Assembly: GCA_944376495.1 (NCBI GenBank) | Contig: CALWCW010000086.1 | Coordinates: forward strand, 1-37,339 | Direction of reading: 5' to 3' | Length of the DNA stretch: 37,339 nucleotides | Origin: an uncultured Clostridia bacterium | GTDB taxonomy: Bacteria; Bacillota; Clostridia; Christensenellales; UBA1242 | In this document: positions 2,261 through 4,648 of the stretch, piece after piece | Numbering within the stretch: the stretch's first letter is position 1 | Layout of the letters: each line of letters begins with the position of its first letter | Notes under the pieces: generated by a model | The model's database searches: none | What the model was told of the DNA's origin: nothing | Seen by the model: the letters and a program-made list of their open reading frames with translations, nothing else | Translations under genes and position numbers: made by a program

Positions 2261-3136
2261 ATGGCAAAATATATAAATGAAGAGAATTTAAAATTGTTAG
2301 ATGAAATTGTAAACTCACAAAAATTTCAAGCAATTGGTGAGCATAATTCGATTATAAAACAAGTGAAAGGGATTATTTCAAACACAAAACCAAATCCCGA
2401 AAAATTGTTTATAGCAGAAGGAATTTGGGCTCAACAAAAAATTTTGGAAACTAACACCAAAATTCAAAGTTTAATTATTTGTCCAGAGTATATTTTTACA
2501 AATGAAGCAGTGATGATTGTTAAACAATTATCAACTCTAACCGATAATTTATTTATTATTTCATCAAAGACATTTGACAAAATTTCGGAAAGAGATAAAC
2601 CAGACGGAATACTTTCTGTCGCTTACCTCCCTAGATTTTCTTTAGAAAATTTTAAATTAAATAAAAAAAGCATTATTTTGATACTTGACGGAATTGAAAT
2701 TCCAGGGAATATAGGAACGATGTTAAGAGTTTGCGATGGTGCTGGAGTTGATGCAGTTTTTATATGTAATAGAAAAGCAAGACTCTCCCACCCTAAATTA
2801 ATAAAAGGAAGTATGGGAGCCGTTTTAACCGTTCCTATTGTAGAGTTTGTTAATGTAGAGGAATGTTATAATTATCTTCATAAAAATAAATTCAAAATTT
2901 ATCTGGCGGACACTCGAGCCGAAAAAAATTACTTTGAAGAAGAATATCAAGATAGAACTGCCTTTGTTATGGGAAGTGAACGCTATGGTATTTCTCGTGA
3001 ATGGTATAATTATGATTGCGGGCTTATTTCATTGCCAATGCTAGGAAAATGTGACTCATTAAATGTAGGAGTGGCTGCAACAGTGTTAATTTATGATGCC
3101 ACAATGAAAATCAAGTTAGGAGCAAAACATGTTTAA
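2261..3136 (+). CDS. TrmH/SpoU-family RNA 2'-O-methyltransferase
   Basis: SPOUT motifs LDGIEIPGNIGTMLR, MGSERYGIS and SLNVGVAA, plus an N-terminal substrate-binding region (FIAEG). Confidence 0.9.
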   Translation: MAKYINEENLKLLDEIVNSQKFQAIGEHNSIIKQVKGIISNTKPNPEKLFIAEGIWAQQKILETNTKIQSLIICPEYIFTNEAVMIVKQLSTLTDNLFIISSKTFDKISERDKPDGILSVAYLPRFSLENFKLNKKSIILILDGIEIPGNIGTMLRVCDGAGVDAVFICNRKARLSHPKLIKGSMGAVLTVPIVEFVNVEECYNYLHKNKFKIYLADTRAEKNYFEEEYQDRTAFVMGSERYGISREWYNYDCGLISLPMLGKCDSLNVGVAATVLIYDATMKIKLGAKHV

Positions 3137-4346
3137 AATAGGTAAATATATTCTTCCTTATAAAATAGATGATAAAACACTTCTTTATAATACAATTAAT
3201 GGAGCTATTGTTGAAATTGAAAATGATCAAATTACTAATAATGAAATAATAAACTTAAATGATAACGAAGAAAAAGAATTGCTAAAAATGGGTTTTAATA
3301 AAGAATTTACTTTAGAAGAGTTAGAAAATTTATATCAATCTCCTCAACATATTATGAATTTAATTATTGAACTTACAAAAAACTGCAACTTACGCTGTGC
3401 ATATTGTTATCAAAGAGAATGGGAAACTGACAAAAAAACAGTTATTTCAGATGAAATCATTGAAAAAATTTGCAATCTCTGCAAAATAATTTCAAATAAA
3501 GATATAAATATTATAACTTTATCATTTATTGGTGTTGAACTTATATTATAAATAGATAAAATGATTACTATTTATAATAAAATAAAAAAAGTAAGCGATG
3601 AAAAAAATATTAAACTATATGTATATATAGATACAAATGGGACAATTTTTTCTGATAAATTAAAAGAAATAAAAAATTTATTTATTAATATTACTGTATC
3701 TTGTCCTGAAGATCATAATAAATTACGAAATTATATTACTTATAAAGATTGTTATACACAGGTAATTGAAAATATATTAAAAATTGAAAAAGAAATTAAA
3801 AATGCAAAACTATCTTTAAGATATAACGTGCATAATAAAAATATTAACGATTTAGAAAAACATATAAAATCACTTATATCAAAAGGAATAAGTTCTAGGG
3901 AAATGGATTTGGCTTACACCGTATCCCATAACGAATTTATTAATACTCTTTCAAAGTCTGATTACTATAAATGGCTATATGATGACGCATATAAAATCTT
4001 AAAAAAGTACAAATTCTCCATTAGGTATTTCCCTGTTTATAGTTTTTACCCATGTAGTGCTTATTCTAAAAATAGTTTCAAAGTCCATTGTGATGGTAAA
4101 ATAAGTTTATGTGACTCATGGGATATAAAAAAATCAAAATTTTCAATTGATGATGTAATTAAAAATCCGGATATGTTTTTTGACTTTTATAAAAACATAA
4201 AATATTTTACACCTATTAAAAATAAAAAATGTCAAAATTGTAAATTTTTACTCCTTTGTGGAGGATTGCGTTTTTGTGATAAAAATCCTTGTGAAAAATT
4301 TAATTATTTAAATCTATTGCTTTCAAGTTTTAAAAATTGCAATTAA
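3129..4346 (+). pseudogene. Radical SAM/SPASM peptide maturase interrupted by an in-frame TAA (ORFs 3129..3551 and 3561..4346)
   Basis: CNLRCAYC, TNG, and SPASM-type CSAY..DGKISLC and CQNC..LCGG..C..C. The N-terminal LLYNTING region is typical of peptide-modifying rSAMs. Both ORFs are in the same frame, separated by one stop at 3549-3551. Confidence 0.8.
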
Positions 4347-4350
4347 TTAA

Positions 4351-4379
4351 TTGACTTTTTTAATAAATAGCCTTATAAT
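4351..4379 (+). promoter_or_regulatory. Near-consensus SigA promoter for the precursor peptide
   Basis: TTGACT(4351-4356)-17 bp-TATAAT(4374-4379), then AAGGAGGAG RBS at 4388-4396. Confidence 0.75.
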
Positions 4380-4397
4380 TATAATTAAAGGAGGAGT

Positions 4398-4589
4398 ATG
4401 ATGAAAATTTTAAAAAATCCAAATATAACTATCTTTTCTGGATGTTATACACCATGCCAACAAGGTAGTAGTGGCGGAAACAAAATACTCAAGCCACAAA
4501 CAAATGATAAAAATATTATAATAGCTGGATGTTATACACCATGCCAACAGGGTAGCAGTGGCGGAAACAAACAGTTAGAAGTATGCTAA
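4398..4589 (+). CDS. Putative RiPP precursor peptide with two identical Cys-containing cores
   Basis: GCYTPCQQGSSGGNK occurs twice. Strong RBS (ATG 4401 has the better spacing). Directly downstream of the rSAM/SPASM gene. Confidence 0.8.
   Translation: MMKILKNPNITIFSGCYTPCQQGSSGGNKILKPQTNDKNIIIAGCYTPCQQGSSGGNKQLEVC
4438..4571 (+). repeat. 47-bp direct repeat (4438-4484 and 4525-4571), period 87 bp
   Basis: 45/47 identical; both differences are synonymous (CAA/CAG, AGT/AGC). Confidence 0.95.
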
Positions 4590-4607
4590 ATTGATTAAAA
4601 ATAATTA

Positions 4608-4648
4608 CTTTATAAAAAACATCTCGTGAAGAGATGTTTTTTATAAAG
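4608..4648. terminator. Bidirectional intrinsic terminator
   Basis: Perfect 18-bp inverted repeat ctttataaaaaacatctc-gtgaa-gagatgttttttataaag between convergent genes. Confidence 0.85.

Follow-up and report, generated by a model that had tools for sequence, protein, structure and literature searches.

A candidate minimal radical-SAM/SPASM peptide cassette with a duplicated leader-plus-core precursor, adjoining a putative rRNA methyltransferase gene, in a Clostridia genome of chicken-gut metagenomes

A 37,339-nucleotide stretch of DNA from an uncultured Clostridia bacterium (assembly GCA_944376495.1, contig CALWCW010000086.1; Christensenellales, UBA1242), referred to here in its full length as the window, contains on its forward strand a methyltransferase gene, a radical S-adenosylmethionine (rSAM) gene of the SPASM type, and a gene for a short cysteine-containing peptide. 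We propose that the latter two form a minimal cassette for a peptide that is synthesized ribosomally and modified post-translationally (RiPP), in which one rSAM/SPASM maturase would act on its own precursor. Every feature that the initial annotation described is present in the sequence. We assign a probability of about 0.7 to this interpretation. That the peptide is real and belongs with the maturase is indicated by its promoter, Shine-Dalgarno sequence, terminator, homologues and same-format neighbours in distant loci. The SpoU/TrmH-type methyltransferase gene (2261-3136; 291 aa) is followed by the rSAM gene (3129-4346; 405 codons in a single frame), the ATG of which at 3129 overlaps the methyltransferase stop by 8 bp, as reported in the initial annotation, such that co-transcription and probably coupled translation are expected. 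The window's own rSAM allele carries a stop codon, to which we return below, and an intact protein of 405 aa (P0002) is 99% identical to it.

The precursor gene (4398-4589) encodes 63 aa when read from 4398 and 62 aa from 4401. The ATG at 4401 is the better spaced of the two from a GGAGG read from the sequence at 4390-4394, which lies 6 nt 5' of it, and it agrees with the homologues (P0011 among them), giving a 62-aa product and bearing out the annotated length of about 62 aa. From this start the peptide comprises a leader MKILKNPNITIFS, a core GCYTPCQQGSSGGN (4440-4481), a leader-like spacer KILKPQTNDKNIIIA, a second core GCYTPCQQGSSGGN (4527-4568) and the tail KQLEVC, the cores being delimited from the translation, the alignment and the repeat itself. 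Both of the copies of GCYTPCQQGSSGGNK noted initially are present, within a repeat unit GCYTPCQQGSSGGN(K). At the DNA level the two copies form a direct repeat of 73 nt (81% identity, spacing 87 nt); read side by side, their 45-nt core parts are distinguished by no more than two synonymous sites, and the peptide is on this pattern best described as a tandem duplication of the whole leader-plus-core module. The spacer preceding the second core starts with KILKP, echoing the N-terminal MKILKNP, so each core may bring its own recognition element.

A sigma-70-like promoter that the initial annotation did not mention, TTGACT-17-TATAAT (4351-4379, 11 of 12 positions, a consensus match only), lies directly 5' of the peptide gene and after the rSAM stop at 4346; promoter-like sites are not enriched across the region, with 23 found and 20.2 expected. 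Downstream, a hairpin assigned to neither strand (4608-4648) has the 18-bp perfect stem described initially (4608-4625 with 4631-4648) and a 5-nt loop, with a folding energy of -22.1 kcal/mol (z = -9.1) that none of 200 shuffled sequences equalled. It sits between the peptide gene and a convergent M18 aminopeptidase gene, and could possibly terminate both. Its loop (4626-4630) differs at three bases (G>T, G>C, A>C) in one of the chicken-gut sequencing runs considered below (X12), with no stem change listed.

All four candidate homologues of the peptide were confirmed in a collection of 5.8 billion proteins: P0011 (98% identical), P0012, which has a dual core, and P0013 (35 aa) and P0014 (34 aa), with one core each. 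The ORF is on this evidence more than a chance one. All five sequences have the same 14-residue core while leaders and tails vary, and each of the two tail types (KQLE... and IIAKRNVG) includes both dual-core and single-core forms. The peptide has no match among Pfam or NCBIfam models, and its core motif CYTPCQQGSSGGN matches none of the PapB, SCIFF or sactipeptide precursor models in those scans. In a literature search whose scope excluded subscription journals and supplements, neither a paper on the core string CYTPCQQ nor a published account of the system was found. The initial view that the peptide belongs to no recognised family is thus supported, to the extent that sequence analysis allows, by these null results and by the position of its maturase below all maturase cut-offs; the precursor family appears to be undescribed, and possibly represents an undescribed peptide class.

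The maturase has the features expected of an rSAM/SPASM enzyme. The CX3CX2C cluster motif (CNLRCAYC, residues 86-93) is present, with C86, C90 and C93 invariant in all seven aligned sequences; the GGEP motif (G135, G136, E137, P138) is invariant across P0002 and all aligned homologues, with the window allele reading GVELIL; and the SPASM region has seven invariant cysteines (C309, C328, C368, C371, C377, C383 and C388), which would be enough for two auxiliary 4Fe-4S clusters. The C-terminal half scores just under the cut-off for the SPASM domain model TIGR04085 (24.1 bits against 27), and the two halves of the window frame taken separately match RiPP maturase models weakly. With the intact allele P0002 four NCBIfam matches become near or full length, namely CefB (110.6 against 600), TIGR04463 (106.1 against 525), PapB NF047865 (85.5 against 340) and the geopeptide model (84.1 against 400); these and the SCIFF maturase TIGR03974 (44.9 against 425) are all far below cut-off. 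By these scores the enzyme lies outside every curated maturase family tested. An AlphaFold model (mean predicted local distance difference test score [pLDDT] 82.7, predicted template modelling [TM] score 0.83) has three strands (8-13, 16-21 and 27-31) and helices in the N-terminal region before the barrel. Its best Foldseek matches are to CteB (5wgg/5why, TM 0.65-0.69), followed by anSME, ChlB, TigE and SkfB, and a sequence comparison with solved structures likewise places CteB first (E 1.2e-6).

The wider rSAM family is real but small. A protein-collection search identified five close intact homologues (99, 65, 55, 52 and 48% identity). Searched with the family profile, a set of 1.84 billion representatives yielded 355 at E <= 1e-30, with about 100 of the 150 listed at E <= 1e-50. 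Within the genus the cassette rSAM is present in 1 of 154 genomes; seven other matches (E 1e-17 to 1e-28), whose open frames span 430-469 aa, were set aside as distant paralogues. One of the seven, from another species of the genus, belongs to a different putative RiPP cluster (G073:C15, locus L071, 305-4151), in which a 378-aa gene is followed by tandem rSAM/SPASM genes (431 and 417 aa) and an unrelated 37-aa open reading frame (ORF) ending ...QECCRGSV. In the order, two other genomes among 400 have the rSAM at E <= 1e-30. Two candidates from the order and class draws were rejected: G360 (E 8e-33) has a high-GC rSAM and no similar peptide, and G635 (E 1e-41) has a peptide of a different kind and no methyltransferase-sized ORF in its 4.2-kb locus. 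The class-level rSAM search left two genomes (G642 and G892) unscored. No close relatives were present among JGI metagenome contigs, where the best of 38 loci have 23-27% identity over most of their length and higher identities apply to short stretches only. The core DNA pattern has no match in IMG/VR, in which the best rSAM relatives (best 80 of 202) reach 27% identity. In a tblastn search of GTDB genome contigs Clostridium sp. UBA4108 is the sole relative, at 32%, the remaining 11 loci having E >= 4e-13.

The pairing of maturase and peptide recurs. The genomic context is known for three cassette loci, namely the window, G239 (a genome of the same order) and UBA4108. In UBA4108, the rSAM of which is 32% identical by tblastn and 33% in alignment A1, a 30-aa ORF, MIIIKKRKTNSKVVCCSSCGGSGWSGGVDK, is located about 750 nt downstream of the rSAM gene and before two ATP-binding cassette (ABC) transporter genes, named as such from sequence. 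In G239 (rSAM 30% identical) a peptide ORF, ...MVVVKKPIKSIKIVCGCGNGNWSSQCKKDQ, lies immediately upstream. The single-core, UBA4108 and G239 peptides share a common format, M-h-h-h-K/R-K/E, then hydrophobic residues at about 10-13, Cys-x(1-3)-Cys and a Gly/Ser/Asn-rich tail, and the Cys pair of the single-core peptides aligns with that of the other two, the core sequences being different. One homologue of each protein, P0003 for the rSAM and P0014 for the peptide, has the same longest-contig size (2998) and the same source ('ena'), which is suggestive only.

A structure prediction for the maturase with the peptide, in which SAM and three clusters were included, is also consistent with this pairing. 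Over three runs the interface score computed from predicted aligned errors (ipSAE) had a median of 0.71 (0.71, 0.72 and 0.67) against 0.01 for the best control, and thus passed a mark that 58 of 80 solved complexes pass, as against 2 of 110 mismatched pairs; at least 28% of contacts were common to the runs, with a partner pLDDT of at least 37. The confident interface is between peptide residues 1-9 and rSAM residues 18-31 and 43-54, in the N-terminal domain; rSAM residues 401-405 also take part in the interface. The model supports binding of the leader to the maturase N-terminal domain, although leader-bound rSAM structures have already been solved (ChlB with its leader, 9gm3), such that its pass may reflect likeness to these. 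The docked leader and the same-format peptides at G239 and UBA4108 agree with the earlier proposal that a maturase of the rSAM/SPASM type is encoded beside its Cys peptide.

In the mechanism that we favour, the precursor would be transcribed from its own strong promoter, and its short N-terminal leader (MKILK...) would dock as an added strand on the presumed N-terminal recognition domain of the maturase. The maturase, with its CX3CX2C cluster and SPASM clusters, would then modify the 14 invariant residues of the core GCYTPCQQGSSGGN, most probably by joining both Cys thiols to carbons of neighbouring residues, as in thioethers of the sacti-/ranthipeptide type, once per leader-plus-core module. 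Among rSAM chemistries we give thioether cross-links at the core cysteines about an even chance; links of this kind are what the enzymes nearest in fold and in family make on Cys-bearing cores. One aromatic residue (Y or W) is present in all three core types, and a Cys-aromatic or carbon-aromatic link is therefore also possible. Release, export and bioactivity of the product are presumed.

The closest known system is that of CteB and CteA (thermocellin, ranthipeptide-type; 5wgg/5why). CteB is the best whole-length fold match (E ~1e-15), with the same succession of N-terminal domain (predicted here to recognise the peptide), radical-SAM barrel and C-terminal SPASM domain, and a short Cys precursor is likewise encoded adjacently. 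However, identity in the structural alignment is 16-18%, the precursor sequences are unrelated, and the window peptide has a much shorter leader (~13 residues), two leader-plus-core modules, and a cross-link that is as yet a prediction. CefB (NF038107, 'Cys-every-fifth') and TIGR04463 are the top-scoring families and are paired with Cys-rich peptides, as their model names state, whereas the window core has just two cysteines and no Cys repeat, and its maturase scores far below their cut-offs; no paper on 'Cys-every-fifth' was found, so the chemistry of these families offers no guidance. PapB, the SCIFF maturase (ScfB), RumMC and SkfB belong to the same superfamily, form thioethers on Cys-bearing cores and give weak full or partial matches, but the window rSAM falls below the PapB and SCIFF cut-offs of 340 and 425. 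To judge from these comparisons, the system would work like a sacti-/ranthipeptide cassette and yet belong to no curated family tested; it represents a new small family of a familiar type.

The methyltransferase matches Pfam SpoU_methylase (PF00588; 121.9 bits against 29.7, profile positions 2-142 of 142) and MRM3-like_sub_bind (PF22435; 31.8 bits against 27), an N-terminal L7Ae/L30e-like substrate-binding domain. It misses the NCBIfam equivalog cut-offs for RlmB (TIGR00186; 109 against 160.15), TrmH (NF008295; 59.2 against 227) and NshR/TsnR (NF000477; 68.2 against 425). Its nearest solved chains are 9h1k (E 2e-32) and 4x3l (E 7e-32), then 1ipa and 7qiu (E 1.2e-19), with 1x7o, 3nk6 and 3gyq more distant (E 1e-11 to 3e-17). 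We take 1ipa to be RrmA, 1x7o AviRb, 3nk6 NHR and 3gyq Tsr. The enzyme is predicted to belong to the RlmR/RlmP/RlmB/MRM3 group of rRNA 2'-O-methylases. In PMC12123411, 9H1K and 4X3L are RlmR and 7QIU is RlmP, and both RlmR (Thermus thermophilus, Um2552) and RlmP (Bacillus subtilis YsgA, Gm2553) are A-loop 23S rRNA 2'-O-methyltransferases; these nearest solved relatives have the same two-domain architecture. They differ from the window enzyme in that the latter is accessory, apparently mobile in its genus, and probably translationally coupled to a RiPP maturase. Tsr and NHR, the self-resistance rRNA 2'-O-methyltransferases of thiopeptide producers, and the resistance enzyme AviRb share the SPOUT fold and an N-terminal RNA-binding domain and have in common with it a methyltransferase gene in a RiPP or antibiotic cluster, but the window enzyme is closer to RlmR, and the associated RiPP would be an rSAM/SPASM product and not a thiopeptide.

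Adjacency to the cassette was found at two of the three loci of known context, the window and G239. The G239 cluster consists, in this order, of the methyltransferase (64% identical), a 295-aa protein, a U32-family protein, the peptide and the rSAM, and is flanked by a tyrosine-recombinase-like ORF (10532-11494, named from sequence) and a large serine recombinase, and so lies on a mobile element. The 295-aa protein has no family and is encoded together with the U32 protein at 7516-9395 (- strand; G239:C24, locus L103), the best NCBIfam matches of the latter being UbiU and TrhP. UbiU and TrhP are hydroxylase-type U32 enzymes, and the two G239 proteins could have the peptide or, alternatively, RNA as their substrate, in the first case as tailoring enzymes; a relationship of the 295-aa protein to U32 as a paralogue was rejected (E 0.099, no Pfam or NCBIfam match). 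The same locus has, by the serine recombinase, a pair of genes for DarT (a single-stranded-DNA ADP-ribosyltransferase) and a macro-domain protein, at 2736-4093 and 4153-5721. In the family of G239 the methyltransferase and the rSAM are each present in one of six genomes, in both cases G239, and in the window's genus a methyltransferase orthologue is present in 3 of 153 other genomes. In one of these (G102) the methyltransferase is 88% identical and the M18 aminopeptidase 63%, and in G005 the aminopeptidase is 68% identical and there is no methyltransferase copy, suggesting recent transfer, although the rates of the two proteins may differ. The gene thus looks accessory and mobile in the genus.

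Several findings weigh against our interpretation of the locus, and these concern the methyltransferase, the product and the window's own allele. G102 and G072 have the methyltransferase (88% and 77% identical) without an adjacent rSAM or peptide and with unrelated flanks. In the order draw, which apparently comprised the same 401 genomes for the methyltransferase and rSAM searches, as judged by shared handles, 35 other genomes (about 9% of the draw) have the methyltransferase (E <= 1e-50) and G239 is the only one of them with the rSAM (E <= 1e-30). Of the 20 genomes of one family, f26, 15 have the methyltransferase, which at the two loci inspected in that family (G364 and G241) adjoins the same membrane-protein gene, as for an ordinary gene. 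The 13-kb UBA4108 locus has no methyltransferase-sized ORF. The initial annotation had made the methyltransferase a member of the unit, and this is partly borne out: the two adjacent loci give it moderate support, whereas the gene mostly occurs without the cassette.

These data lend themselves to a reading in which the methyltransferase is merely a neighbour, a mobile rRNA or tRNA 2'-O-methyltransferase with a housekeeping-type role, for example at the A-loop, beside which the cassette landed or was retained. We regard this as evenly poised between right and wrong. In addition to the stand-alone copies, the single rSAM carrier among 35 and the f26 distribution, it accords with the absence of a Cys-rich peptide from the methyltransferase loci of G171 (beside a 287-aa ordinary-looking gene) and G467 (beside no clear gene), with nearest solved relatives that are housekeeping enzymes (RlmR, RrmA and RlmP), closer than AviRb, NHR and Tsr, and with a score of just 68.2 bits where the NshR/TsnR model asks for 425. 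However, the adjacency recurs in two lineages in which few genomes otherwise have the gene (3 of 153 and 1 of 6), in clusters of differing architecture, and the 8-bp overlap, with the joint transcription that it implies, also counts against this reading. A comparison of longest contigs between methyltransferase relatives (best 120 of 945) and the rSAM homologues P0003-P0006 gave no sharing, which is uninformative as the contig in common may be other than the longest. A methyltransferase orthologue with 56% identity (G304:C5, locus L110) has directly downstream of it a 105-aa Cys/Asn/Gly-rich ORF (CCCNNGC..., CGCSCCNNGCGCN...; 913-1230, - strand), with no rSAM within the 3.8-kb locus.

Our own reading, which draws on these gene distributions, is of an ordinary rRNA methyltransferase family, one copy of which was probably recruited to, or travels with, the cassette, with joint carriage at least twice. 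The methyltransferase may protect the producer's ribosome from the product, and would otherwise be a co-travelling accessory gene; we offer the protective role tentatively, with the odds somewhat against it. A more specific version, in which a cross-linked peptide of about 14 residues targets the large ribosomal subunit, the methyltransferase provides self-resistance, and the G102 and G072 copies are horizontally spread orphan resistance genes, is unlikely in its entirety. Orphan immunity genes are also expected under self-resistance, and the stand-alone copies therefore do not decide between these possibilities.

For the product, the thioether chemistry assigned to the maturase derives entirely from likeness in fold and family and is to be read as provisional. 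The window cassette has no protease or exporter, which leaves release and export unexplained; in this it is unlike UBA4108, with its two ABC transporters, and G239, with its U32-family genes. The M18 aminopeptidase of the window is an ordinary gene present in relatives that have no cassette. Antibiotic RiPPs usually show the opposite of the pattern seen here, in which the core is invariant and the leader varies. One interpretation is that the product is a signal or a small redox or cofactor-like molecule cut from the invariant core, and not an antibiotic. Streptide-type signals and precursors of the pyrroloquinoline quinone and mycofactocin type are analogues. This would suit a core that stays identical in five of five peptides while the rSAMs diverge to 48% and leaders and tails vary, a cassette with no exporter, protease or immunity-type membrane protein, and the reduced 1.2-Mb host genome. 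We nevertheless consider it improbable, since the patchy, mobile spread (1 of 154 genomes in the genus; 2 others of 400 in the order, E <= 1e-30) is more in keeping with a trait for competition than with a cofactor, the neighbourhood has no gene for a partner dehydrogenase or a receptor, the cores of distant homologues differ in sequence, and the UBA4108 peptide adjoins two ABC transporters.

The window allele of the rSAM gene has a stop, and the cassette would be dead in any cells that truly carry this allele. The two halves into which the gene had been divided (3129-3551 and 3561-4346) are one reading frame, the sole interruption of which is a TAA at 3549-3551; the split is thus real in the window and is absent from P0002 and from each of four chicken-gut runs (X1, X4, X5 and X12, from four studies) whose contigs we compared over 2100-4800. 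Where P0002 has SFIGGEPLLQ, the window reads SFIGVELIL followed by the stop. All four runs have C or G at 3518, 3535, 3541, 3542, 3543 and 3549, where the window has T or A, including a C at 3549 (CAA) in place of the T. Relative to the run contigs, the window therefore has six private substitutions within 32 nt (four C>T, one G>T and one C>A; 3518-3549), and the run versions restore Gly, Pro, Leu and Gln together with one synonymous site, giving an intact GGEPLLQ. X1 (word depth 49), which is possibly the source sample, has a 5327-nt contig that differs from it at exactly those six letters, the rest of the 2.7-kb stretch being identical outside the cluster. The X1, X4 and X5 contigs each span the methyltransferase, rSAM and peptide genes unbroken.

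The prevalent rSAM gene is intact in the population. The intact motif in four of four runs indicates that the stop and the motif loss are private to this assembly, with the proviso that contigs drop rare variants and a minor allele could escape detection in these runs; together with P0002 it also means that no repair of the gene is needed. The six-base cluster may be an assembly or consensus artefact, a rare null allele or a clustered mutation event. That the cassette in this genome is a dead relic, with a true rSAM pseudogene and a peptide left unmodified or not made, is quite unlikely: it is consistent with the TAA and with GVELIL, which destroys the SAM-binding GGEPLL motif, and six clustered changes forming one assembly 'bubble' would usually come from real reads and not from random error, but P0002 is intact and the four runs, including X1 at its depth of 49, show only the intact version at all six sites. 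An alternative genetic code was rejected as an explanation for the in-frame TAA, as other ORFs of the window end normally and four of four assemblies read CAA. In-frame TAA codons also occur in relatives, two in an M18 aminopeptidase homologue (G014:C8:23167-24552) and one in an rSAM homologue (G034:C16:4141-4605); these could be pseudogenes or assembly errors in low-GC metagenome-assembled genomes.

Upstream of the methyltransferase gene, a terminator-like hairpin (2055-2076, + strand; 9-bp stem and T tail) closes the preceding gene (1571-2056), such that a new transcription unit would begin before the methyltransferase, apart from the upstream genes. The region 235-2056 contains four small genes, the first a 98-aa W/D/H-rich ORF with no family, then partly overlapping paralogous ORFs at 525-1010 and 922-1476, both with a Cys_rich_CPCC domain, and an ORF of 161 aa that matches DUF4926 weakly; this looks like an array of toxin tips and immunity genes. 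The window has another radical-SAM gene, unrelated to that of the cassette, at 9035-10265 (- strand), which encodes 280 aa with Radical_SAM and Fer4_12 domains, resembles the activating-enzyme type and overlaps a 139-aa ORF. A single giant ORF occupies 23020-37266 (- strand; 4748 aa, longer if it runs past the window end), with a G+C content of ~0.32-0.37, above that of the rest of the window. A scan of 1500-5200 against Rfam gave one match only, below gathering (E 0.43), and the sole PADLOC result is a generic viperin-model match to the rSAM domain. The host genome is small (~1.2 Mb, ~29% G+C) and belongs to a Clostridia lineage of chicken-gut metagenomes. Of the 24 sequencing-run rows listed, 20 carry the stretch or part of it (nine studies), mostly labelled chicken gut metagenome, and 19 runs contain half or more of its words; the four compared above, which confirm it, are the ones drawn on as evidence.

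RiPPs made by rSAM/SPASM enzymes have already yielded new cross-link chemistry and, from gut anaerobes, narrow-spectrum antibiotics. The system described here is unusual in several ways: its core is invariant, its leader is very short, the leader-plus-core module is duplicated, and linkage to an rRNA methyltransferase recurs. With one enzyme and one precursor it is near-minimal, and should therefore be easy to reconstitute. Nearly 15,000 rSAM proteins are tied to RiPPs according to the abstract of PMC10288494. Uncharacterised rSAM peptide clusters are numerous, so the system would be of moderate interest, one more among many of these, if the immunity reading is false. If the methyltransferase gene does confer immunity, the target would directly be indicated as the ribosome, and the many stand-alone homologues in gut Clostridia would be a possible resistance reservoir. 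No rSAM/SPASM RiPP class before it would then have had immunity by rRNA methylation, and the product would be a ribosome-binding scaffold of a new kind, made by a gut anaerobe with a reduced genome.

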